Source of the DNA: a virus
Lineage: Duplodnaviria > Heunggongvirae > Uroviricota > Caudoviricetes
DNA length: 13,300 bases
Strand: one strand, 5' to 3'
Virus record (IMG/VR): IMGVR_UViG_2681813205_000017
Span: 1-13,300 of that record
This document shows positions 1-13,300 of this stretch, piece by piece. Position 1 is the stretch's first letter. The number at the start of each line of letters is the position of its first letter. The notes below the pieces were generated by a model. It worked only from the letters and a program-made list of their open reading frames with translations, was not told the DNA's origin and searched no databases. A program made the position numbers and the translations under genes.

Positions 1-162
1 ATTACTGCTTCAGGTTGGTGTATTGCTTGCATCTTTCCCTTTTCATTCATAAAGATAGATCAAACAACAAAACCACCACCACCCCCCTGAAAAGGCTCAT
101 AAATAGCGAAAATCCGCGAGGTCTCCGCCCCGTAACAGGTCCATATGCCGGAAAGGACCCGC

Positions 163-184
163 AAAAAAGCCGGATTTCTCCGGC
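163..184 (-). terminator. Intrinsic terminator ending the capsid operon (GCCGGA-GAAA-UCCGGC stem-loop plus U6 on the - strand)
   Basis: 6-bp GC-rich stem with a GNRA tetraloop followed by six U on the - strand RNA, 7 bp downstream of the stop of the 191..604 gene. Confidence 0.7.
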
Positions 185-190
185 CTTGTC

Positions 191-604
191 TCAGATGGTT
201 TTCAGTATGCGATCGATGTCGCCGTCATCGCCCGGGTTTCTGCCATCGTATGCCATGCCAGCTGATACGGCTTGTGGGCTGTGCATGTCCATAAAGTTTT
301 CAAAGGCTGCGGTAAGCTCTGGTGCAACCTTCGGGCGTTCCTGCTCTATGGTCATGTTCAGGATGTTTTTAGCCGTATCAACATCAATACAAGGCACGTT
401 TGCCATTGCACGTAACAGCGGCTGATAGTCGTCAGATTCATGAAGCGCCATAATCGCATCAGCGCGCGGCTTGTCCTTCTCTTCCAGGCTGTTAAGTTGA
501 TATACGGCCTCGTAGGTTGATAAACCTCTGTCAGCCATTGCCCGCGCTTCGGCTTTAAATTTACTCGCCAGCGGTAGCGTCATGATACTTTCATTCGTTG
601 CCAT
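191..604 (-). CDS. Hypothetical protein, last gene of the capsid operon (137 aa)
   Basis: ATG at 604 preceded by a GGGGG Shine-Dalgarno. Starts 13 nt after the stop of the decoration-like gene and is followed by an intrinsic terminator. The + strand ORF 15..425 overlapping it lacks such context. Confidence 0.6.
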   Translation of the reverse strand: MATNESIMTLPLASKFKAEARAMADRGLSTYEAVYQLNSLEEKDKPRADAIMALHESDDYQPLLRAMANVPCIDVDTAKNILNMTIEQERPKVAPELTAAFENFMDMHSPQAVSAGMAYDGRNPGDDGDIDRILKTI

Positions 605-616
605 CGTTCCCCCTGC

Positions 617-952
617 TTATCGCGCCAGCGGCTGAACGGATACGCCAGAACCCGCAAAGGCGGCGCATTTTTTCGCGTCGGTGTCGGCGCTCTCAGGCCA
701 GTTAACGGCGGCAATATTGAATATCCCCGTCTTGTAGCACTGTGCTGATTTCTGCGTCGACGTGTCCACGGGGTACGAGGTCAGATAAACAGCCTTGCCA
801 GATTCCTGACCATCCCACGGCTTAAACTCGCCATTTTCCGCCAGCATCAGCGGGGTAAATTCCTGAATAACGCCAGCATCAGCAGCAAAATGTACCAGCG
901 TCGTGGATACCTGCTGACTACCTGCAAATAACTCAATGTATGGAGTGTCCAT
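617..952 (-). CDS. Head decoration protein, lambda gpD-like (111 aa)
   Basis: Translation shares recalled gpD motifs (TPLML, WDG, YK-G-F, WPE, KK-AFAG-VSV) and similar length. GGGGGG Shine-Dalgarno 5 nt upstream of the ATG. Immediately downstream of the capsid gene. Confidence 0.7.
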   Translation of the reverse strand: MDTPYIELFAGSQQVSTTLVHFAADAGVIQEFTPLMLAENGEFKPWDGQESGKAVYLTSYPVDTSTQKSAQCYKTGIFNIAAVNWPESADTDAKKCAAFAGSGVSVQPLAR

Positions 953-964
953 AGAATCCCCCCG

Positions 965-2020
965 TTAACCAATTTTGACGATAACAAATTTGCGAATATC
1001 TGCCGGTACCGGCTGCGGTGCGCTGTGCGTCTGCACGTACTCAATCGCCGGATCGCCGTCCTCAATCCAGTTTTTCGGGTAAAACATGTTTTGCGTTGCG
1101 CCCGTTCTGACCGCTTCCTGATCCATAATCGCACCATAGGCCACCAGCCCTTTATTGTTGGTGTTACCCAGGACCAGCAAATCAGGCTCAAGGAAATATT
1201 TTTCGGTGCCGTCGCTGTCAGTGTATTTGCCGGAATAGACGACAAGGGCAATATCGCCCAGATAGCCTTTAAAGCTCACCACTTCACCCAGGTTTTTACA
1301 GGCCAGTTCTGCGGCGGATTCTGAACCACGGGAAAGGTCGTACAGTTCGCGGAATTTTTTAAAGCTGCGTAACGTGCGCCATACTTCAGCGCCCATAATC
1401 ATGACGTTTGCGGGGCAATTGCCCTGATCAGCATAAAGCTCGATGTCATAGATTGGATCGTGTGTTTCTTTATCCAGCTCAGACCATTTTTTACCGTCAG
1501 CCTGTTCTATGATATTGCTTTCCGGGATCTTCCAGTCGATTTCATAGCGTTCTATGCCTTCGCCCTCAATGAGGTTTTTTCCGGTCGTTACCGCATTCAC
1601 CGCCAGCCATTCCACGCGTGCCTTAATGGCGTTTATCTGGCGGCGCATGTTGCCAGTAATCAGGCGCATACGGCGATAGGTAGGATCGTTAAGCTGTGCC
1701 GGATCTTCTCCAGCCATGCGCATGATGGTTTTTGTTGGATCGATTTCGTGTTTGGGTTTCATGTAGCCTGGTTTAATCGTGCTGGTTTCGTACCCTTTAT
1801 CGCGCTGGACCTGACTACCCACCATAGGCGAACAGAACGCTGACATCGTAACCTCTTCAATGTCCAGGGTGTCCAGAATGATGTTCTGGGTGTTGAAGGT
1901 CGCCACGTTCGGGAAAAACAGCGTGGTAAACAGCGGACTGAATTTAAATTCTGCAATATCCCCGCGATTCAGGTACGCGAAAAGCTGGTTAGTGTTAAGT
2001 GCCGTTGCTTTGCCTGCCAT
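965..2020 (-). CDS. Major capsid protein, lambda gpE family (351 aa)
   Basis: Translation aligns along its length with recalled lambda gpE (FKF-PLF, PGYMKPKHE, DPTYRRMR, LRSFK, RGSES, VVYSGKY, LVLGNT, YPKNW, GDPA, SAP). GGAGGTG Shine-Dalgarno; start overlaps the upstream stop (TAATG). Confidence 0.85.
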   Translation of the reverse strand: MAGKATALNTNQLFAYLNRGDIAEFKFSPLFTTLFFPNVATFNTQNIILDTLDIEEVTMSAFCSPMVGSQVQRDKGYETSTIKPGYMKPKHEIDPTKTIMRMAGEDPAQLNDPTYRRMRLITGNMRRQINAIKARVEWLAVNAVTTGKNLIEGEGIERYEIDWKIPESNIIEQADGKKWSELDKETHDPIYDIELYADQGNCPANVMIMGAEVWRTLRSFKKFRELYDLSRGSESAAELACKNLGEVVSFKGYLGDIALVVYSGKYTDSDGTEKYFLEPDLLVLGNTNNKGLVAYGAIMDQEAVRTGATQNMFYPKNWIEDGDPAIEYVQTHSAPQPVPADIRKFVIVKIG

Positions 2021-2226
2021 TATTCACCTCCATGCGTCTGATTCATGCCCAGCGCCGCGCGTAAATAGGCGCGGACCTGCCAGCCTGTTGACGGCTCAAC
2101 CATCGCCAGCGGATCAAGTCCTGCCGCAATGCCTGCTTTTACGTTCTGCTGGTGGCGTTCCTTGAGCGCCTTCACGATGTCGGGGCTTATGTACACCGAA
2201 ACACCGCCTTTTTTCTCTTCAGCCAT
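2020..2226 (-). CDS. Hypothetical small protein, first gene of the capsid operon (68 aa)
   Basis: ATG at 2226 with a purine-rich ribosome-binding site. Stop overlaps the capsid start codon (translational coupling). Lies ~55 nt downstream of a near-consensus sigma70 promoter. Confidence 0.6.
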   Translation of the reverse strand: MAEEKKGGVSVYISPDIVKALKERHQQNVKAGIAAGLDPLAMVEPSTGWQVRAYLRAALGMNQTHGGE

Positions 2227-2282
2227 AGTAAGAAATTCCTCTTCGACTTAAAAAATCATAACTGGATGTTTATCCAGTCCTG

Positions 2283-2310
2283 ATTATAATCAGAATTGCA
2301 TTTTATGCAA
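2283..2310 (-). promoter_or_regulatory. Sigma70-type promoter of the capsid operon (-35 TTGCAT, 16-bp spacer, -10 TATAAT on the - strand)
   Basis: On the - strand, TTGCAT (complement of 2305..2310) and TATAAT (complement of 2283..2288) with a 16-bp spacer. Both hexamers sit inside perfect palindromes (TTGCATTTTATGCAA and CTGATTATAATCAG). Confidence 0.55.
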
Positions 2311-2390
2311 TGATATTGAGTTATGTTGCAAATTATGAAATGATTATCCCGATCACGAACGCCAGTGCATCCAAAAACCTCATATGCAAA

Positions 2391-2429
2391 AGCCCGATAA
2401 GAACCCTCTGACCTTATCGGGCTTTTTTT
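2391..2429 (+). terminator. Strong stem-loop with T7 tract (AGCCCGATAAG ... CTTATCGGGCT TTTTTTT); + strand intrinsic terminator geometry, possibly bidirectional
   Basis: 11-bp stem followed by seven T on the + strand. On the - strand the same hairpin is followed by UUUUG. No + strand gene upstream, so it may act mainly as a second - strand terminator or insulator. Confidence 0.5.
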
Positions 2430-2435
2430 GGGCGC

Positions 2436-2457
2436 AAAAAAGCCGGATTGCTCCGGC
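2436..2457 (-). terminator. Intrinsic terminator after the 74-aa gene (GCCGGA-GCAA-UCCGGC plus U6)
   Basis: Same module as 163..184 and 2799..2821 but with a GCAA tetraloop; lies 20 bp downstream of the stop at 2478. Confidence 0.7.
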
Positions 2458-2477
2458 TATGTGTGCTGTGTGCTGGC

Positions 2478-2702
2478 TCAGTCTCTGATCTCTTTCAGAA
2501 ATTCTATCAATGCATCTATCTGTTCAGGATTTACCGCCAGCATTTCACCGGACAGAGCACATCTCACAAAACCATGCTGATCCTTTTCAATCAGTGCGCC
2601 CGTCTCCAGGAATGCGCGGTAATCATTGATGCTCATCGTCTCCATGTTGTCAGCATGGTATTTATCACGCTGTTTTAATATCTCATCAAATTTCATCGGC
2701 AT
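2478..2702 (-). CDS. Hypothetical protein (74 aa), monocistronic moron-like cassette
   Basis: ATG at 2702 preceded by AGAGGA. The gene is bracketed by intrinsic terminators on both sides (2799..2821 upstream, 2436..2457 downstream). Confidence 0.6.
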   Translation of the reverse strand: MPMKFDEILKQRDKYHADNMETMSINDYRAFLETGALIEKDQHGFVRCALSGEMLAVNPEQIDALIEFLKEIRD

Positions 2703-2798
2703 TGTTTTTTTCCTCTGTTGTGTCTGTTTGTTTCAGATAGTAACTATGCCTGACCGTGACGAAAACCCGGTAATGCGCCATACCGTTTCAACTGGTGC

Positions 2799-2821
2799 AA
2801 AAAAAGCCGGATTTCTCCGGC
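2799..2821 (-). terminator. Intrinsic terminator after the PerC-like gene (GCCGGA-GAAA-UCCGGC plus U7)
   Basis: GNRA-tetraloop hairpin plus U-tract on the - strand, 8 bp downstream of the stop at 2829. Confidence 0.7.
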
Positions 2822-2828
2822 TGTTTGA

Positions 2829-3104
2829 TTAGCTGTCCTGGTAATTGCGCCATATTTCATCACCAGCACCATCTATACCCATTTCGGCATAAGTGCGATC
2901 GACTGCCTTTTTCAGGTCTCCGAAATTATCCGGCGGCTCCGGTGCCCTCTGTGCCTTCCTTGAACATTCCAGCCGTCGCATCGTGATGTGATGCCGTTCC
3001 TTGTCTGTCTCCACCAGCTGCATGACTTCACCCCATCGCGCCGCCGCCCTCCGGTAAAAGCCTTTCGCCTCTAGTTCCTCCGCTATGCGGTCATGTACCA
3101 TCGT
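2829..3104 (-). CDS. PerC-family transcriptional regulator (91 aa)
   Basis: N-terminal AEELEAKGFYRRAAARWGEVM matches the recalled PerC/Pch signature (LE-G-WRRAA-RW). The likely start is the ATG at 3104 (GAGGGGG Shine-Dalgarno, 8 nt after the SSB stop) rather than the ORF-track start at 3221, which would overlap ssb by 110 nt. Confidence 0.65.
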   Translation of the reverse strand, partial: TMVHDRIAEELEAKGFYRRAAARWGEVMQLVETDKERHHITMRRLECSRKAQRAPEPPDNFGDLKKAVDRTYAEMGIDGAGDEIWRNYQDS

Positions 3105-3111
3105 CACCCCC

Positions 3112-3522
3112 TCAGAACGAAATATCATCACCGTAAGGGTCATCGCCTCCCGCTGGTGGCTGATTACCCTGTGTGCCTGTGGTTTTGCGTCTGTTCCCGC
3201 CAGGACGTGCCGCACGGGCACTGATTACGCTGTCTGCAATAACCTGATACCCCTGCCGTGTTTCCCCGTTCTGTCCGGTCCACTGGCTTACCTGCATCGT
3301 GCCGGATACGCTGGCAACATCGCCTTTTTGATGTTTAGCCAGGAAATCGGCCTGTTTGCCAAATGCGATAACCGATAACCATAACGTCGCCTGTCCGTCA
3401 TGTGCCTGGCTGCATGGCAACGATACCGCCATACGCGCCAGAGTCATCGGTGTGCCCTTGCTGGTCTGTTTTACCTGCGGGTCGTCCACCAGCCGCCCGT
3501 AAGCGGCTATCTGTGCCGTCAT
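3112..3522 (-). CDS. ssb: Single-stranded DNA-binding protein (136 aa)
   Basis: OB-fold core resembles E. coli SSB (W-x-x-V-x-x-FGK ... KG ... W), followed by a Gly/Gln/Pro-rich linker and an acidic C-terminal tail DDPYGDDISF (E. coli SSB ends DDDIPF). GGAGAGGTG Shine-Dalgarno; ATGA overlap with the upstream gene. Confidence 0.85.
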   Translation of the reverse strand: MTAQIAAYGRLVDDPQVKQTSKGTPMTLARMAVSLPCSQAHDGQATLWLSVIAFGKQADFLAKHQKGDVASVSGTMQVSQWTGQNGETRQGYQVIADSVISARAARPGGNRRKTTGTQGNQPPAGGDDPYGDDISF

Positions 3523-3770
3523 AATTCCACCTCTCCGGTTTTAACGTTGATGGTTGTTACCTGTTCCGCTTCGGCAATCTCCCGTTCTGTCAGCGTGGCA
3601 AAGTTTGCCGCCGCCGTGGTCATGAATGCGCTTATCAGGTCGGGATGTTCCTTCGCGTATCCTTCCCGCGTGTGGCGGTCTATCGTTCTGATTGCCACCT
3701 TTAAGGTGTGCTCAGTCATGTCTAACGCTTTATATTTTGGCTCTGTTCTGTCTCTGCGTTTTTGGGTCAT
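3519..3770 (-). CDS. Hypothetical protein (83 aa from the ATG at 3770; alternative start at 3800 gives 93 aa)
   Basis: ORF translationally coupled to ssb (ATGA overlap). The ATG at 3770 has a GAGAGG ribosome-binding site and avoids overlap with the iterons. Confidence 0.5.
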   Translation of the reverse strand: MTQKRRDRTEPKYKALDMTEHTLKVAIRTIDRHTREGYAKEHPDLISAFMTTAAANFATLTEREIAEAEQVTTINVKTGEVEL

Positions 3771-3782
3771 TTCTCGCAACCT

Positions 3783-3973
3783 CTCACTTTTTCGCCTCAC
3801 TTTTTCAAGCGTCTCACTTCGTCGCAGCTGGGATTTTCGGTTTTTCTATGTGTGTGTTTCATAAGTATTTTTTTACCCCTCACTTTTGAGGATGTATACA
3901 GGTCGAAAAGTGAGGGAGAGCAGGCTAATTTTGGCCCTCTTTCTATCCACCTCGCTTTTGCTCCTCACTTTTA
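3783..3973. repeat. Putative replication origin: six CTCACTT(TT) iterons flanking an AT-rich stretch
   Basis: CTCACTT copies at 3783, 3796, 3813 and 3879, an inverted copy at 3906..3915 (AAAAGTGAGG) and another at 3963, plus a degenerate copy near 3950. AT-rich segment 3836..3876. Lies directly 3' of the helicase gene. Confidence 0.55.
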
Positions 3974-5371
3974 TAGCGGCGCTACATCATCCCCATCGAT
4001 ACGAATAACCCCATCTTTTTCCAGCTTGTACAGCCAGCGCCGGAAGTTTTTCATTTCATACCCCAGCTTTTTCATGTCATCACGTAACAGCGGGATCGTG
4101 CACTTGTCGCCGTTCTGTGTGCGTGAACGGATGCACCCCCATAGCGCGGTATGGTTTTCCGTCTTGTTCCCTGCCTCCTCGATGCGCTCCAGTTCAACAG
4201 GAGGGCGCGGATCATCCACCACCACCAGCGACGTGATTAATTCACCGTCAGCGTCGGTAAAAAGCTCCACCACGCGTAAGTCATATGCGGCTTCTTTGAG
4301 TTCCTCCGCGTCCTTCATTTTGGTGCATGAGATAACCAGCGCTTCGCTTCCTGCGTCCTCCCTGCGTATCCGGTATTCAGCATCCAGCGAAGCACGAAAT
4401 GCACTGGAACCGCGCGCGCCTTTCGTCTCATCCTTGCCGGAATGGTGAACCACCAGCACCGTGGCCCCTGTGCGTCGTTTCAGTTCGTCACAACCACGGA
4501 TAAACGCCCCCATATCACGGGAATCATTTTCATCATTCCCACCAAAGCAACGCGCCAGCGTATCCAGAATAATCATGCGTACAGGTTTACCCGTTTCCCG
4601 CTCCACCTGACGGGCAGCGATAACCATTTCATCAACATCAAGCGGGGCAGCCGGAAAGATGGGGCGGTTTACCAGATACAGATTTTTCACCTGCTCATCG
4701 TGCACAACCTCCCAGGCTTTTACACGACGCGGAACACCTATACCGCCTTCACCAACCACATAGAGAACCGCACCATGTGCAACCCTGCGGCCTCCCCACT
4801 GGCGACCAGTGGCAACATGGCACGCCCACGATCCGGCAAGGAATGATTTATAGGACCCGCTAGCCCCGTATATGCTGCATAGCGATACCGCCGGAATAAT
4901 CCCCTTAACCACGTAATCCAGTTGCGTGTCGTATCCGGTAGATCCAACGCTCATCGGTAGCGTGGTTTTTCGCTGGTGGTTTTTTTCTTCCGCCGGCTCT
5001 TTCCCGCGCACCCGTTCCAGGTATTCGCGCCAGTTCTCCCGCATATGGCTGTGCATCCCTTCGGGGTAATAATTCGCATCAGTTACACCCGCCGCCGCCA
5101 GCTTGTGCGCAATGGCATTAATATTTGATGGCCTGATGTGGCCTGCCTTGTACAGCCGGACACAATAGCGCCCCTCGTCGATGATTCTCAGGTCTGCCAG
5201 TTCATCCAGTTGATCATCAGCCAGCACAACGGGAGGCACATTATCGCCAGCCAGTCGCCCGTCCTGTTCCTGCCACTGTTTCGCATGTGCCCAGGCATCA
5301 CTACCCGCAAAAATAATGACTTCGGTCATCTTGTCGTAAGGCTGTTTTTTTAAGTTCGGTGCGCTTTTCAT
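3971..5371 (-). CDS. Replication initiator / replicative helicase, RecA-fold ATPase (RepA / AAA_25-like), 466 aa
   Basis: Walker A-like GASGSYKS, Walker B-like MIILDTLARCF, and VLVVHHSGKD typical of RepA/DnaB-like helicases of satellites and plasmids. ATGA overlap with the upstream gene; iterons immediately downstream. Confidence 0.75.
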   Translation of the reverse strand: MKSAPNLKKQPYDKMTEVIIFAGSDAWAHAKQWQEQDGRLAGDNVPPVVLADDQLDELADLRIIDEGRYCVRLYKAGHIRPSNINAIAHKLAAAGVTDANYYPEGMHSHMRENWREYLERVRGKEPAEEKNHQRKTTLPMSVGSTGYDTQLDYVVKGIIPAVSLCSIYGASGSYKSFLAGSWACHVATGRQWGGRRVAHGAVLYVVGEGGIGVPRRVKAWEVVHDEQVKNLYLVNRPIFPAAPLDVDEMVIAARQVERETGKPVRMIILDTLARCFGGNDENDSRDMGAFIRGCDELKRRTGATVLVVHHSGKDETKGARGSSAFRASLDAEYRIRREDAGSEALVISCTKMKDAEELKEAAYDLRVVELFTDADGELITSLVVVDDPRPPVELERIEEAGNKTENHTALWGCIRSRTQNGDKCTIPLLRDDMKKLGYEMKNFRRWLYKLEKDGVIRIDGDDVAPL

Positions 5372-5667
5372 TTCTTGCCCCTGAATCCGTTAATCATGGT
5401 TTTCAGCTTCTGGATGTTTGCCCGTGCCCTGGCGTTGCTGGTGGGCACGTTATGCGGCGCGGTCTGTACCAGAGAAAAATCACGCCGGAACTGATAAACA
5501 GGCATCACGCAATCATATTCGTAACCTTCACGGCGGTAGGTTACGCGCCGTTCTTCCACGCCCTTAATCATTACCGTGCCGCCGTACTGGTCGCGGTAAA
5601 TATCACCGCGCGTAAATTTAGGGTGAGTGTTGCCACTGGCAGTTAAGCCAGAATATTTAAGTTTCAT
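5368..5667 (-). CDS. Hypothetical protein (99 aa), translationally coupled to the helicase gene
   Basis: ATG at 5667; stop overlaps the helicase start (ATGA). Basic, Tyr/Arg-rich; no recognisable motif. Confidence 0.55.
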   Translation of the reverse strand: MKLKYSGLTASGNTHPKFTRGDIYRDQYGGTVMIKGVEERRVTYRREGYEYDCVMPVYQFRRDFSLVQTAPHNVPTSNARARANIQKLKTMINGFRGKK

Positions 5668-5672
5668 TATTT

Positions 5673-5906
5673 TTATTCTCCGGTGTGCTGTTCTTTATAT
5701 CTGTCGTGCAATAGATCTATTTCTTGCAGTTCCATTATTACAGGATCAAGAAGCGTTATTAATGCCGTGGCAATTCTTGATTTTTGTTTGTCGCGTTCAT
5801 TGTCGCCAAGTGTTTCAAGCCATATGCGCAATATTTCCAGCATGTTTTCACTGTGAGAAAGTGCAAGAAATGCGCGGTCTATTGTTTGGTGGTAAATATC
5901 ACGCAT
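5673..5906 (-). CDS. Hypothetical protein (77 aa)
   Basis: ATG at 5906 overlaps the stop of the upstream gene (ATGCGTGA). Part of the same coupled gene chain. Confidence 0.55.
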   Translation of the reverse strand: MRDIYHQTIDRAFLALSHSENMLEILRIWLETLGDNERDKQKSRIATALITLLDPVIMELQEIDLLHDRYKEQHTGE

Positions 5907-6357
5907 GGCTTACATCCTCAGGAAATTTTCTTCTATAACGCGCCTCTGCCACATATTCCGCATAATCGGCGGCGATATTCAGTACATCAAGCCCCGTTGA
6001 TTTATATTCTCTCGTGGAAAGTAAGAAAAAAGCCGCTCTAATAAGTTCTGGCATTGACGAAAGCGCATCAGCCGCATCATCAGGAACGCCGGAAAATTCC
6101 TGTTTCAGGGAATTAAAACGATCATCACGCATAACCCCCCCCCCATTTTCACAATCAGCAACAAGAATATTTTTAGCGTCATTCAGCGACCGCGTTGCGG
6201 TGTATCGGATACATTCCAGGGCGAATAGTGTGTATTCTTCCCTTTCTTCCCTTTCTTCCTTTTGTGCAAGCTCTGCTGTGCATTCAATATCAATAAGCGC
6301 GTGCATCAGCGTAGTGAGTGCGGCGGCGGCTGCGTCCGGTGTGGTTTTATTGCACAT
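5899..6357 (-). CDS. Hypothetical acidic protein (153 aa from the ATG at 6357) containing an in-frame G10 tract
   Basis: ATG at 6357 has a GGAGGGG Shine-Dalgarno 3 nt upstream. The ORF-track start at 6411 has no ribosome-binding site and would overlap the upstream gene by 65 nt. Contains an EEREEREE repeat and the Gly-Gly-Gly encoded by the C10 run at 6135..6144. Confidence 0.55.
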   Translation of the reverse strand: MCNKTTPDAAAAALTTLMHALIDIECTAELAQKEEREEREEYTLFALECIRYTATRSLNDAKNILVADCENGGGVMRDDRFNSLKQEFSGVPDDAADALSSMPELIRAAFFLLSTREYKSTGLDVLNIAADYAEYVAEARYRRKFPEDVSHA

Positions 6358-6577
6358 GTACCCCTCCGCATTTTTTTTCGTTAGAAATAAGCGTTCTTCT
6401 TTCCTGTTCATCGATCAGGAATACGCAGACCTCACCGCTAAGGCGTTTAAGTAAGCCGATGATTGCCCCTGATTCGCTGTCGGTCATCATGCCTGGGTAA
6501 TCCTCTGCCAGTGCGCAAATAACTTCGATTTGGTGGGCGCGTTCTACTGCCTGTTGTAGTGTGATTTCCTGGCTCAT
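6347..6577 (-). CDS. Hypothetical protein (76 aa)
   Basis: ATG at 6577 with a GGGGG ribosome-binding site; ATGA overlap with the candidate upstream ORF. Contains an A8 tract on the coding strand. Confidence 0.55.
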   Translation of the reverse strand: MSQEITLQQAVERAHQIEVICALAEDYPGMMTDSESGAIIGLLKRLSGEVCVFLIDEQERRTLISNEKKCGGVHVQ

Positions 6578-6774
6578 AAGCCTACCCCCTGACGAATACG
6601 GGCAGCGAATACCATCACGCAGCCAGCCGGGGATTGCAGGCGTGCTTCCTGTTCGCTGGTGGCCTCAATGGTAATCACGCGCGGTTGTGCAGTGCTCAGG
6701 GCGATAAAACGCCAAATGTATTTATTCAGGTTGTGCGAGTCCCGCCCTTGCGGGTGTGTGGTATGATTTCTCAT
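6574..6774 (-). CDS. Candidate small ORF (66 aa), putative first gene of the early operon
   Basis: Not listed separately in the ORF track; it is the C-terminal end of the spurious 381-aa ORF. ATG at 6774 with a GAGG ribosome-binding site 6 nt upstream; stop overlaps the next start (ATGA); ~100 nt downstream of the predicted - strand promoter. Confidence 0.4.
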   Translation of the reverse strand: MRNHTTHPQGRDSHNLNKYIWRFIALSTAQPRVITIEATSEQEARLQSPAGCVMVFAARIRQGVGL

Positions 6775-6872
6775 AGCTACCTCGATACTCTCGTTATCGT
6801 TGGTGGTTAGAAGCCCCGTTACTGCTCCTACAGTGCGGGGTTTCGTCGTTTCTGCACCTTGCATTAACAAGG

Positions 6873-6950
6873 TGTAAGTAACTTTATTTATAGGTGGCTT
6901 ACATGTCAATGCTTTTATGTAAGACTTTTTATGTGTATATTGTCTTACAC
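6873..6950. promoter_or_regulatory. Divergent switch region: four TGTAAG / CTTACA operator half-sites overlapping a - strand TTGACA-N17-TAAAGT promoter
   Basis: Half-sites at 6873 (TGTAAG), 6898 (CTTACA), 6919 (TGTAAG) and 6945 (CTTACA), alternating in orientation. On the - strand a perfect -35 TTGACA (complement of 6904..6909) and a -10 TAAAGT (complement of 6881..6886) with a 17-bp spacer. Confidence 0.5.
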
Positions 6951-6970
6951 TTTCATTGAGAGGATTACAG

Positions 6971-7276
6971 ATGGCTACAGGTTCAAAAAACGCAAAATCA
7001 CAATCACTGACAGCTCGGATCCCGCATGATGTTATTGAAGGCATGGAATCCGTAAAACTGGACGGTGAAAGCAACGCCGGATTCATAGTAACCGCCATGC
7101 GCGGTGAAATCGCCCGCCGCCAGGCAGAAGGAAGCGGAGAAAACCTCCTGATTTCTTCGCTCAATGCACTGGCGCAGGTGGAAAAACTCGGAATCAAAGC
7201 CGCCGAGGAGATCGGGCAGCTCGTCACTGTCGCACGTGAAGAACTCCAGCGCCGCAAGACTAAAGAACCAGAGTAA
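6971..7276 (+). CDS. Putative transcriptional regulator, candidate repressor of the early operon (101 aa)
   Basis: ATG at 6971 with a GAGAGGA Shine-Dalgarno. Divergent from the - strand operon and immediately downstream of the operator cluster. Function is inferred from position only. Confidence 0.55.
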   Translation: MATGSKNAKSQSLTARIPHDVIEGMESVKLDGESNAGFIVTAMRGEIARRQAEGSGENLLISSLNALAQVEKLGIKAAEEIGQLVTVAREELQRRKTKEPE

Positions 7277-7318
7277 TCACCATCAGCGCCGTGGTGTAAG
7301 GTATTACGGCGCATTGCT

Positions 7319-7507
7319 ATGCAGGACAACACAATGACCGATAAAGAATTGACCAAAACATTATCACCGGCACGGAAAAGACGGCGCAGAAAGATAGAGC
7401 ATGAATCAGAAAGATTCGCGCCATGTGCTTTTGCCCTTGAGCAATTCCTTAAAGAGTACAGGGAAAAGCGCTCATTGCAGGTATGGCAACGAACTGAACC
7501 AGACTGA
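7319..7507 (+). CDS. Small basic protein (62 aa; alternative start at 7334)
   Basis: ORF following the regulator on the same strand, with a Lys/Arg-rich stretch (ARKRRRRK). Followed by an intrinsic terminator at 7603..7630. Confidence 0.4.
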   Translation: MQDNTMTDKELTKTLSPARKRRRRKIEHESERFAPCAFALEQFLKEYREKRSLQVWQRTEPD

Positions 7508-7602
7508 TAGCATTGCCCACCAGCCTGATAGCGACTATCATTGCCGTTCTTATGTTTGGGATCACACACACAAACGGCGCAGCGGGTTATCTGTTCAGAA
7601 AG

Positions 7603-7630
7603 GCGGCTCCATTTCGGGGCCGCTTTTTTT
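7603..7630 (+). terminator. Intrinsic terminator for the + strand regulator genes
   Basis: GCGGCUCC ... GGGGCCGC stem (one G-U wobble) with a 5-nt loop, followed by seven T. Confidence 0.6.
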
Positions 7631-7776
7631 ATGTCTGAAAAACCCCAATTTTGTTGTTTTTCAGTTTCACCAGGGCGAACGAATCCCCGCCCACGTTCTG
7701 GCGTATATTCAATCTTCATGGTTATAGCTCTGTGTTCAGATGATTGATGTGTGGCGGCTGCGTGCCGCCAGCGTGA

Positions 7777-7965
7777 TTAATGAACTGCCTTGCAGCTATC
7801 CTTCCAGGCCAGAACCTCGGATAAAGACCAGCCAACGGAACGACCGCCAAGTTTACGACGTGATGGGAATTGTCCGGCCTTTTCCAGGCGGTAGCGACAC
7901 GTACGGCTAAGGCCGGTTAGTTTTTCGCATTCTTTTTCACGTATAAACCGATCAGTGCTTAACAC
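7777..7965 (-). CDS. alpA: AlpA-family phage regulator / excisionase-like protein (62 aa from GTG at 7965)
   Basis: CEKLTGLSRTCRYRLEKAGQFP ... GGRSVGWSLSEVLAWK matches the AlpA helix-turn-helix signature. The ORF track starts at a TTG at 8046, but a GTG at 7965 has an AGGGGGG Shine-Dalgarno and gives the typical AlpA length. Confidence 0.75.
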   Translation of the reverse strand: MLSTDRFIREKECEKLTGLSRTCRYRLEKAGQFPSRRKLGGRSVGWSLSEVLAWKDSCKAVH

Positions 7966-8238
7966 TATTGCCCCCCTTTCGTTTCTTAAAGAGTCATCAG
8001 GTGTCTTATTGTGTCGTATTGTTCCCGCTAGAGTGATGAATGGCAAATATTGAGGATGTATGATTTACAGAAAATGAAACAGTAAGAATAAAATCTTTTA
8101 AATTCATGTTAATACAAAGGCATAAAATATTGTTTCATGCCTTTTTTCTCACGCGTTAAAGCGTTATTCGCTAATGTATAAAAAAACAGTCACACAAATA
8201 AAATCAGTCACTTATAAACCTGTGTACTTTTTCGCCTC

Positions 8239-8288
8239 TTGTTCGTGGTTGTTCCACGTTGTTTCACATTGTTCGCCGTTGTATCTGT
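8239..8288. repeat. Five tandem 10-bp units each beginning TTGT (helically phased) between int and alpA
   Basis: TTGTTCGTGG TTGTTCCACG TTGTTTCACA TTGTTCGCCG TTGTATCTGT, an exact 10-bp period. Confidence 0.6.
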
Positions 8289-8330
8289 GTGCTTATCCAG
8301 TATGCGCATACTGAAAAAACACGAAAAAAA

Positions 8331-9548
8331 TTATTTTCTTCTGGCTGCTGGTAGTGCGGTTACGTTTTCATGTGTTCCCGCCAGTATCCCTAACCGCTCC
8401 ATCCACATATCCAGCGCATTGCGTTTAGCATCCAGATAACGGGAATGATTATAAACTCGCTGCATTCCTGGCATCTGGTGGCCTGTAAGCTGCTCCACGA
8501 CATGCGGATCAACGCCTAAATCGTTCAGCATGGTTGTAAAGGTGCGCCGGATGTCATGCAGTGACCAGTGAGGATGATTAAGCCTCCTGTGCGCTAATCT
8601 TCCATACTGCGATACGCTGGCCTCCTGTTTCACTTCCCCCAGCAATAAGCCCGTGTGCCTGTTCTGCTCCACCAGCTGCGTGACGAACGGCAGTATTGCT
8701 TCCGGTATGGGCCGGAATATTGCCACCTTCGTTTTGCTGTGTTCTTTCGGCACGGTCCAGAGCATTTCGGTAAAATCCCACTCGCTGATCTCCGATAACC
8801 TCAGTTCTACCGTCCGGCATCCGAACACAATCAGGAGGCGGATTAACGCGATGTAGTAGGGGGAGAATATTTTTTTGTCCAGTGCCTGCAATAATTCGCC
8901 CAGTTCTTTGGTGCTTAAGACACGCTCGCTTATATCCGGTTTTTTCCCAACGTCCGCCACACTCATATCATCAAGAACGTTGCTGATTGCATAGCGCCGC
9001 CTCCGGCAGAACTTAAGCGCCTGTTTGCACGTCTGTAGCAAGAATCCGGCAGTAACAGGCGTTCGCTTTGCCACCTGGTCAAAACAGGCCAGCCAGTGCC
9101 GTAGCTCGCATTTATCCAGCGGCATAGCACCAATGTGCTGTATTACGTGATTATTAAGTCGCCTTTTCAGGGCGATATAATCCACGCGGTTTTCCTTTAC
9201 GTAATACTCAAGCCAGTAGGTGAGCGCATCGCCAACCGTTACGGGCTTTAACGCTTCCTGTACGGTGTAATTCATCTCATGACGTGGATTTTTCCCCTCA
9301 GCCAGCCATGTGCGACACTGTGCGGCTTTTTCCCTGGCTGCTTTCAGGCTCAGATCAGGATAACTTCCCAGCTTAATGCGTTCGGGTCGTGTCTCCCTTC
9401 CCGTTCCGGCCCTGTATGTGAAATACCAGGTCAATTTCCCTGATGTTAAATATTTCACGCTCAGGTTTCCGCCATCACTATAAAACGTGTTTTTCTCCGC
9501 TGGCTTACCATGAAGTTTCCTTAGCAAGGTATCGCTCAGTTTGTTCAT
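8331..9548 (-). CDS. int: Tyrosine integrase, P4-like family
   Basis: N-terminal arm-binding-type motif (KPAEKNTFYSDGGNLSVKYL), C-terminal catalytic region with HDIRRT and VYNHSRY (R, H-x-x-R, Y). Start is probably the ATG at 9548 (MNKLSD...); the ORF track uses a GTG at 9560. It is the outermost island gene next to the junction. Confidence 0.85.
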   Translation of the reverse strand: MNKLSDTLLRKLHGKPAEKNTFYSDGGNLSVKYLTSGKLTWYFTYRAGTGRETRPERIKLGSYPDLSLKAAREKAAQCRTWLAEGKNPRHEMNYTVQEALKPVTVGDALTYWLEYYVKENRVDYIALKRRLNNHVIQHIGAMPLDKCELRHWLACFDQVAKRTPVTAGFLLQTCKQALKFCRRRRYAISNVLDDMSVADVGKKPDISERVLSTKELGELLQALDKKIFSPYYIALIRLLIVFGCRTVELRLSEISEWDFTEMLWTVPKEHSKTKVAIFRPIPEAILPFVTQLVEQNRHTGLLLGEVKQEASVSQYGRLAHRRLNHPHWSLHDIRRTFTTMLNDLGVDPHVVEQLTGHQMPGMQRVYNHSRYLDAKRNALDMWMERLGILAGTHENVTALPAARRK

Positions 9549-9584
9549 TGCTCTGCTCACGTTTTACCCCCTCTTTACGAAAAA

Positions 9585-9650
9585 GTGACTACACCAGTGA
9601 CTACACCGATCGTTGCACAAAGGGCTACAACGTGAAACAAGCTGGAACAA
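9585..9650. promoter_or_regulatory. int upstream region with a 12-bp tandem repeat (GTGACTACACC x2) and four 10-bp phased units ending ACAA; candidate arm-type or regulator binding sites
   Basis: GTGACTACACCA GTGACTACACCG at 9585..9608. CGTTGCACAA AGGGCTACAA CGTGAAACAA GCTGGAACAA at 9611..9650, which is the reverse complement motif of the array at 8239..8288. Confidence 0.45.
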
Positions 9651-9757
9651 GGAAAATCACAAATCTGTTGATAATCAAAAACATAATGCACAGCCTGAAA
9701 CATTATGAAACAGCAAAAAACACTAAATGATAAAATGCTGTTATTCTTAACCCGCTG

Positions 9758-10642
9758 GTGCAACACATGGTCCGCTGGCGAGTGCCGCGTGTACTGGCGG
9801 TGTCGATTTTGATGACCATCATCGTGATGGCGATGGTGTTGCTATTAGCTTATCTGGGTTCCGCGCTCAACGAGTTGACGCGGACGTTACCGCAATATCG
9901 CAACTCTATTATGACGCCGCTGCAAGCTCTTGAGCCGTTGTTGCAACGCGTAGGGATTGACGTCTCAGTTGACCAGCTGGCGCATTACATTGATCCGAAC
10001 GCGGCGATGACGTTGCTCACCAACTTATTGACGCAGTTATCTAATGCCATGTCATCAATATTTTTATTGCTGCTGACGGTGCTGTTTATGCTGCTCGAAG
10101 TGCCACAATTGCCCGGAAAATTTCAGCAAATGATGGCGCGTCCGGTTGAAGGGATGGCGGCGATTCAACGTGCAATTGACAGTGTTTCTCATTATCTGGT
10201 GCTGAAAACAGCCATCAGCATCATCACCGGCCTGGTCGCCTGGGCGATGCTCGCCGCACTCGATGTTCGCTTCGCTTTTGTCTGGGGATTGCTGGCCTTT
10301 GCGCTTAATTACATCCCTAATATTGGTTCAGTTCTCGCGGCAATCCCCCCTATCGCTCAGGTACTGGTGTTTAATGGCTTCTACGAAGCGTTGCTGGTGC
10401 TGGCGGGATATCTGCTGATTAATCTGGTCTTCGGCAATATTCTGGAGCCGCGCATCATGGGACGTGGGCTGGGGCTTTCCACATTGGTGGTATTTTTGTC
10501 GTTGATTTTTTGGGGATGGTTGTTAGGACCGGTGGGTATGCTGCTTTCCGTGCCGTTAACAATTATTGTCAAAATTGCGCTTGAACAAACAGCGGGAGGT
10601 CAAAGCATCGCCGTTCTGTTAAGCGATCTCAATAAAGAGTGA
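9758..10642 (+). CDS. tqsA: AI-2 exporter TqsA (YdgG), 5'-truncated by the island insertion (294 codons retained)
   Basis: Translation matches recalled E. coli TqsA from its internal [15 protein letters not shown] segment to the C-terminal SDLNKE. An in-frame TAA at 9731..9733 lies directly upstream and there is no native N-terminus or ribosome-binding site. The ORF-track start is an internal GTG. Confidence 0.8.
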
Positions 10643-10662
10643 CGGCCTCCGCAGAGGCCGTC
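10641..10662. terminator. Shared stem-loop between convergent tqsA and pntB (GACGGCCTC-cgca-GAGGCCGTC)
   Basis: 9-bp perfect GC-rich inverted repeat lying exactly between the two stop codons. Confidence 0.55.
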
Positions 10663-10666
10663 AGGG

Positions 10667-12058
<1,392 letters not shown>

Positions 12059-12065
12059 TTACCCC

Positions 12066-13300
<1,235 letters not shown>

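Follow-up and report, generated by a model that had tools for sequence, protein, structure and literature searches.

The 13,300 nt stretch analyzed here (positions 1 to 13,300 of IMG/VR record IMGVR_UViG_2681813205_000017, referred to below as the window) carries an allele of pchE, a PerC-family gene, on a satellite of the phage-inducible chromosomal island (PICI) type. The gene lies at the end of a short operon and is followed by its own terminator. It is likely that its product is an accessory, host-directed regulator that would act through silencing or regulator complexes, and that it is not an activator of LEE1/ler in the enterocyte effacement locus (LEE). The gene and the spacer in front of it are as follows.

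2829–3101, minus strand: pchE-type PerC-family gene, 273 nt, 90 aa plus stop codon, identified by the PF06069 match, RefSeq identity and the ratio of nonsynonymous to synonymous substitutions (dN/dS)
3102–3111, minus strand: 10 nt spacer between the ssb stop codon and the pchE ATG, with a Shine-Dalgarno-like GGGGGTGA, read directly

The product of this minus-strand open reading frame (ORF) starts MVHDRIAEELEAKGFYRRAAARWGEVM, as read from the window sequence. Its start codon, an ATG, lies at 3101–3099, and the length of the coding sequence equals that of the RefSeq coding sequence. The original prediction had placed the gene at 2829–3104; its end at 2829 is correct and its end at 3104 is 3 nt too far 5'. 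The ssb stop codon is the TGA at 3114–3112. The spacer with GGGGGTGA is the same in prophage-like element Sp7 of Escherichia coli O157:H7 Sakai except for one base. Comparison of the window pchE with two natural alleles gives a dN/dS of 0.23–0.27, and the same kind of comparison gives 0.04 for the adjoining ssb, both from small counts. These values indicate that pchE is a functional coding sequence under purifying selection, with a looser constraint than that on ssb. A chance reading frame is ruled out by the Pfam score, the conserved family residues and the dN/dS.

The PerC-family assignment, which had been proposed from a motif, is borne out by the profile search. The protein matches Pfam PF06069 (PerC) over profile positions 1–89 of 90 with E = 4e-43 and 146 bits, where the gathering score is 22.6 bits. 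All 12 of the invariant or near-invariant residues derived from an alignment of 54–57 diverse PerC-family members are present (D4, A7, L10, E11, G14, R17, R18, A19, R22, W23, C46 and G75). The best PHROG is phrog_994, which has no assigned function, and the N-terminal half matches several PHROGs labelled 'transcriptional activator'. A search of phage records gave just seven weak matches, which suggests that the pchE subgroup is rare in sequenced phages proper. Three long repetitive representatives that had matched (P0072, P0097 and P0131) were rejected as relatives because the matches are of the low-complexity or repeat type.

There is also a faint similarity to the ANR family (Aar and relatives). 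The ANR model NCBIfam NF033650 scores the window protein at 20.4 bits (E = 3e-4), below the 32-bit cut-off; residues ~7–52, the N-terminal three-helix region, align to model positions 9–54. The same residues match the model in 40 of 54 PerC-family members, again below the cut-off, with a best E of 3e-7. ANR proteins are ~55–70 aa compared with 90 aa here and are without the C-terminal half of PerC, and the window protein is not assigned to that family. The N-terminal 50 residues of PerC are ANR-like as a remote homology only, a modest observation that is new here. A sequence-profile search of the PDB gave no solved PerC relative, only chance matches to ribosomal protein uS3 with E values of about 0.4 or higher. 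An AlphaFold model built on a 54-sequence alignment has a mean predicted local distance difference test score of 85 and four helices (5–13, 16–29, 33–50 and 60–74). This predicted fold, also a modest new observation, resembles a TPR/MIT-like helical bundle rather than a classic DNA-binding fold. In P0102 and phrog_1324 the PerC-like segment sits behind a longer N-terminal region, which in P0102 looks by eye like a winged-helix DNA-binding domain. Such an arrangement would fit the PerC motif as an effector and not as the DNA-reading module.

Identity of the window protein is 100% to WP_000233304.1 of O26 strain E2865, which carries the annotation 'PerC family transcriptional regulator', and 90% (81/90) to PchE, locus ECs_1588, of O157:H7 Sakai. 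A database match titled 'transcriptional regulator PchE' agrees with this assignment. The neighbors of pchE are 90–99% identical to their Sakai counterparts and are in the same order. The Sakai protein differs by nine substitutions and is alike in length, in its flanking genes (ECs1586, ssb and ECs1589), in the ribosome-binding spacer and in the terminator. By sequence, the window gene is an allele of pchE, which is classed as a group 3 perC homologue (Andreozzi et al. 2018); this gene is already known and the identification is an ordinary one.

Similarity to the group 1 proteins is much lower. Identity is 41.6% to PerC of enteropathogenic E. coli (EPEC), encoded on pMAR2/pEAF, and ~44% to a representative of the PchABC type found in enterohemorrhagic E. 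coli, so that the group as a whole is at about 42–44%. These proteins share with the window protein the Pfam family, the size and the N-terminal motif LExxGxYRRAAxRW. However, group 1 genes are carried by a virulence plasmid (the perABC operon) or by lambdoid prophages, and they relieve LEE1 silencing, which group 3 reportedly does not. Another relative, EcCIMP1_025 (46.7% identical), is likewise PICI-borne with a PF06069-type annotation, but it is at the far end of its own island (EcCIMP1) and not beside ssb.

The genes and terminators around pchE are the following.

3519–3770, minus strand: ECs1586-like first gene of the operon, 83 aa (phrog_1231, E = 5e-53; 90.4% identical to ECs_1586)
3112–3522, minus strand: ssb, 136 aa (Pfam SSB, E = 9e-17, and TIGR00621; 97.8% identical to Sakai ECs_1587)
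2798–2822, minus strand: intrinsic terminator T1, from a terminator scan (7 bp stem with 5 GC pairs, 4 nt loop, 7 T)
2478–2702, minus strand: ECs1589-like gene downstream of T1, 74 aa (phrog_1957, E = 2e-42; 98.6% identical to ECs_1589)
2436–2458, minus strand: terminator T2, at the end of the shared cassette
2437–3772, minus strand: shared cassette ECs1586-ssb-pchE-T1-ECs1589-T2, ~1.33 kb, from blastn and alignment, with otherwise unrelated flanks

The ECs1586-like gene and ssb overlap by 4 nt and the ssb-pchE gap is 10 nt, a layout typical of a single ECs1586-ssb-pchE transcript. A GTG start that would give the ECs1586-like gene 93 aa is not conserved. In O157 a polycistronic ECs1586-ECs1587-pchE RNA was mapped by RNA-seq and 5' rapid amplification of cDNA ends; it begins 10 nt upstream of ECs1586, which is 675–700 nt upstream of pchE (Andreozzi and Uhlich 2020). 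The window has the same geometry: counted from a point 10 nt in front of the ECs1586-like ATG, the pchE ATG is 679 nt away. The predicted operon link to ssb is thus consistent with strand, spacing and the RNA mapped for the 90% orthologue. Transfer of the O157 result is weakened in that the transcription-start region mapped in O157, as it stands in Sakai, is not conserved in the window. No sigma-70-like promoter upstream of the operon passed a scan of the minus strand at 3771–3970.

The further claim that pchE ends at its own terminator also stands. The T1 hairpin AGCCGGAGAAATCCGGCT (2822–2805, minus strand) begins 6 nt past the pchE stop codon and is followed by TTTTTTT; T1 is identical in Sakai Sp7. 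The T2 hairpin (2458–2441) has the stem of T1, AGCCGGAGCAATCCGGCT, followed by TTTTT. A third hairpin can be seen by eye at ~2423–2388, GCCCGATAAG...CTTATCGGGC with an 11 nt loop and then TTTT, and the three successive terminators part the replication/pchE operon from the capsid operon. No terminator was found after perC in 12 distant Enterobacterales loci, which indicates that an own terminator is a trait of the E. coli cassette and not of the PerC family. RefSeq relatives list a 42 aa 'hypothetical protein' at 2744–2872 on the minus strand that overlaps the 3' end of pchE and spans the terminator. This call is probably spurious. Some database 'PchE' entries (P0035) are frameshift fusions into the frame of this ORF.

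The effects of PchE on the host are known from work on the O157 orthologue. Independently of ler, plasmid-expressed pchE lowers csgD more than 7-fold and reduces curli, biofilm formation and adhesion to HEp-2 cells; deletion of pchE slightly increases curli (Andreozzi et al. 2018). Over-expression raises flhDC, fliC and motility, and lowers stpA, lpfA1 and eae; in strain PA20 it raises ler about 2-fold (Andreozzi and Uhlich 2020). The influence of pchD and pchE on LEE is slight (Pick et al. 2025; Andreozzi et al. 2018). PerC-family regulators are common in Gram-negative PICIs (Pick et al. 2025), and allelic PerC variants on E. coli PICIs had been mentioned earlier (Fillol-Salom et al. 2018). 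The PerC-like proteins of EcCIEDL933 and EcCICFT073 have no effect on LEE1-lacZ (Pick et al. 2025, citing Porter 2005), and EcCIMP1_025 represses LEE1-lux in C. rodentium, for which an ANR-like action was proposed (Pick et al. 2025). The suggestion that such a gene could rewire host expression agrees with these over-expression results for the 90% identical PchE. The example given with it, activation of LEE via ler, does not carry over; it is a property of group 1 PerC/PchABC.

A mechanism can be proposed on this basis. LEE1 activation by group 1 Pch is fully dependent on H-NS/StpA/Hha silencing, and group 1 Pch lowers H-NS occupancy both in vivo and in a reconstituted system, with no Pch-H-NS co-precipitation seen. 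ANR proteins are anti-activators that bind AraC-type activators and H-NS directly. Taken together with the ANR homology, the behavior of group 1 Pch suggests that PchE would most likely remodel nucleoid-protein or regulator complexes. In the proposed scheme pchE would be transcribed as the last of three genes (ECs1586-like, ssb and pchE) behind the replication module and origin of the PICI. The predicted 90 aa all-helical product, accessory to the satellite and directed at the host, would alter H-NS/StpA/Hha-type nucleoprotein silencing or bind other regulators, and would not be a classic sequence-specific activator. The outcome would be a shift of the host surface, with curli and adhesins down and flagella up, and LEE1/ler would not be activated.

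The cassette that contains pchE is common to satellites with differing replication and capsid modules. Similarity between the window and Sakai Sp7 begins exactly at the ECs1586 ATG (3770) and stops just past T2 (~2437), and the sequences are unrelated beyond both ends. In blastn the similarity is restricted to the cassette span, with identities of 94.2% to Sakai Sp7 and of 93.3% to an O26 island at the tqsA site. Outside the cassette, a primase, AACCCGCA-type repeats and an HK97-type head module are found in Sp7; their places in the window are taken by a RepA/AAA_25 helicase, AAGTGAG iterons and lambda gpE/gpD-type head genes. Sp7 is located between roxA and phoQ, with the order integrase, primase, ECs1586, ssb, pchE, ECs1589 and HK97-type head/packaging module, and is a capsid-forming PICI of the EcCIEDL933 type (Alqurainy et al.). 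The IMG/VR set comprises 80 loci with pchE-type genes that are 74–100% identical. All four combinations of the two replication types with the two capsid types are found among these loci, and a capsid gene (lambda E/D type or HK97 type) is within 6 kb in 74 of them. Where enough upstream sequence is available, ssb ends at most 60 nt upstream of the pchE-type gene on the same strand in 64 of 76 loci. Of 5426 complete E. coli genomes, 1438 contain part of window positions 2400–3600, and 80% or more of this stretch is covered in 536.

More distant loci show a related gene order. The 12 loci from other Enterobacterales represent E. albertii, E. ruysiae, Atlantibacter, Enterobacter, Shimwellia, Chimaeribacter, Pantoea, Erwinia and Lonsdalea; they were found with patterns from an alignment of closer relatives, and the sample is biased towards the pchE-like subfamily. 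In all 12 the satellite primase is followed directly by a PerC homologue (44–61% identical) in the same orientation; ssb intervenes in six. The order primase-(ssb)-perC is conserved across these loci, which is new here and modest. In Pantoea septica (L018:6001–6114) a premature stop codon trims the PerC homologue to 37 aa, and it is probably a pseudogene there.

The element itself has the features of a Gram-negative PICI, in agreement with the satellite location that had been predicted. PICIs of this kind are recognized by a tyrosine integrase, AlpA, a replication protein with an adjacent iteron origin, a length of ~10–15 kb and no tail or lysis genes. The window encodes a tyrosine integrase, AlpA and an AAA_25/RepA helicase with adjacent iterons. 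Full-length relatives of the island are ~10.5 kb, and no tail or lysis genes are annotated in them. The iterons form the following cluster.

3783–3970, minus strand: iteron cluster, AAGTGAG x6, between the stop codon of the RepA-type helicase and the start of the ECs1586-like gene

AAGTGAG has six matches in the window, five of them on the minus strand, and all are in this cluster; 1.0 is expected by chance and none of 200 shuffles reaches six. The cluster is probably the origin of the satellite, directly upstream of the operon. The start of the pchE operon mapped in O157 is at a position equivalent to this cluster, in unrelated sequence.

The head genes of the window match profiles of the lambda gpE-like major capsid and gpD-like decoration proteins. 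The head region of this island type (191–2226 in the window, L001:7507–10827 and L019:10413–13731) carries the gpE-like and gpD-like genes, a connector-like 137 aa gene and terS; in the full islands L001 and L019 the connector-like gene and terS are all that is added to the two shell genes. A complete capsid-forming PICI of the EcCIEDL933 type has the major capsid protein, prohead protease, portal, head-tail connectors, HNH, terS and terL. Portal, prohead protease and terL were not found by annotation or tblastn in the full islands L001 (99.5% identical) and L019; the window is cut at its left end. The element is, on the evidence of these relatives, a PICI but not a complete capsid-forming one. 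This island type thus encodes its own capsid shell proteins without being of the complete type.

The leader of the capsid operon (2227–2440, minus strand) has TTGCAT, a 16 nt spacer and a perfect TATAAT. A hairpin, GACTGGATAAACATCCAGTT, with a T-run is at 2279–2260, right after the TATAAT and just ahead of the first gene of the capsid operon. Sakai Sp7 has a hairpin and T8 directly before the capsid gene, in unrelated sequence. The leader is reminiscent of lambdoid pR'-tR' control by Q antitermination, which might come from the helper phage.

A different role for PchE, raised in the original prediction in the form of a late activator of the island, would be in the cycle of the satellite itself, as an activator or anti-silencer of the late capsid/packaging operon or as a modulator of the helper phage, with host effects only incidental. 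The constant position of the PerC homologue after the satellite primase in the 12 distant loci, and the capsid gene close to nearly all of the 80 pchE-type loci, favor such a role. To our knowledge, several PerC-carrying genera (Pantoea, Erwinia and Lonsdalea) have no LEE, and this counts in the same direction. pchE is also the last gene before the terminators that insulate a capsid operon with its own TATAAT promoter and hairpin, which is a late-regulator-like position. Against this, one cassette at 90–100% identity precedes two unrelated capsid leaders, and neither capsid genes nor a terminator after perC are found in the more distant PICIs that bear PerC. The shared gene order may only mean that a single backbone was inherited, and close relatives were favored by the search patterns. 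AlpA, moreover, is the demonstrated master switch (Alqurainy et al.). Transcription of O157 pchE is steady in uninduced cells and falls 6–7-fold on SOS induction (Andreozzi et al. 2018), the reverse of what is expected of a late activator. This is a mild point, tempered by the report that no resident O157 prophage induces the EcCIEDL933-type island (Alqurainy et al.). We regard a role in the satellite cycle as unlikely. A broader evolutionary form of the idea is a little less so but still doubtful: perC may be an ancestral, near-core part of the Enterobacterales PICI replication operon, placed behind primase/helicase and an optional ssb, and encode an ANR-like three-helix domain with a C-terminal extension, selected for satellite/helper biology (e.g., late-gene counter-silencing or interference with helper or host regulators), and its virulence effects would then be secondary.

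PchE could also be an ANR-type anti-activator that inactivates an AraC/XylS-family regulator or H-NS by protein contact and is mainly a repressor. The sub-threshold ANR_neg_reg matches over residues 7–52 are consistent, the predicted fold resembles protein-interaction modules, the effects of PchE are mostly repressive, and the silencing of LEE1-lux by EcCIMP1_025 was proposed by its authors to work in this way. But the score of 20.4 bits falls short of 32, PerC has an additional conserved C-terminal half (the G75 segment) that is missing from the 54-position ANR model, and PchE also activates flagellar genes. We know of no AraC-type partner in the control of csgD or flhDC, which counts against this reading as well, and we consider it very improbable. 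Least probable of all, to the point of being nearly negligible, is that PchE activates LEE in the manner of EPEC PerC and PchABC. The common Pfam family and the slightly more than 2-fold increase of ler in PA20 would fit, but the identities to EPEC PerC and the PchABC-like representative are low, eae is repressed on over-expression, and published work finds little influence of pchD and pchE on LEE and no activation of LEE1-lacZ by the PerC-like proteins of EcCIEDL933 and EcCICFT073. A host-directed regulator acting on silencing or regulator complexes is the reading that we retain.

Some further observations concern the makeup of the window, which is a mosaic. Positions 1 to ~9200 correspond to an O26 island at the roxA/phoQ site at 99–100% identity, and at 9201–13300 the tqsA-site junction of O26 strain RM10386 is matched at 100% identity. 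The island that encodes WP_000233304.1, from O26:H11 and other Shiga toxin-producing E. coli (STEC), is 99.5% identical over window positions 1–6188; it lies between roxA and phoQ, whereas the window copy is joined to the tqsA junction. The switch is inside the integrase gene (int 8331–9560; region 8400–9760). RM10386 has two satellites in opposite orientation, ~630 kb apart, and recombination between them with a chromosomal inversion would give the arrangement found in the window. Because of the island inserted in it, tqsA (AI-2 transporter, 9758–10642) is without its 5' end. It is marked as a pseudogene by RefSeq in strains with the same junction, and the junction is shared by 247 complete E. 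coli genomes. Variation within the island is greatest at 6189–7200. A 381 aa ORF at 6574–7719 on the minus strand is a run-on; relatives annotate only a 3' Icd-like gene and a pseudogene fragment; a YlcI/YnfO-family gene is opposite to it at 6956–7276 on the plus strand. A 100% identical gene on a supposed plasmid (CP061267.1, pSTEC1024_3; L019) was rejected as evidence of plasmid carriage, since the 171 kb record has roxA, pepT, phoPQ and mnmA and is a mislabelled chromosome fragment.

As a discovery the gene has little weight. RefSeq annotates it, in O157 it bears the name pchE, experiments on it have been published, and it has repeatedly been described as frequent cargo of Gram-negative PICIs. 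The value of the analysis is corrective, in that members of the pchE subgroup should not be presumed to be LEE activators. The ssb-pchE cassette circulates among mosaic satellites that a large share of E. coli genomes carry, STEC O26, O103 and O157 among them. Strains could in this way acquire a regulator of curli, adhesion and motility from one another by satellite transfer.
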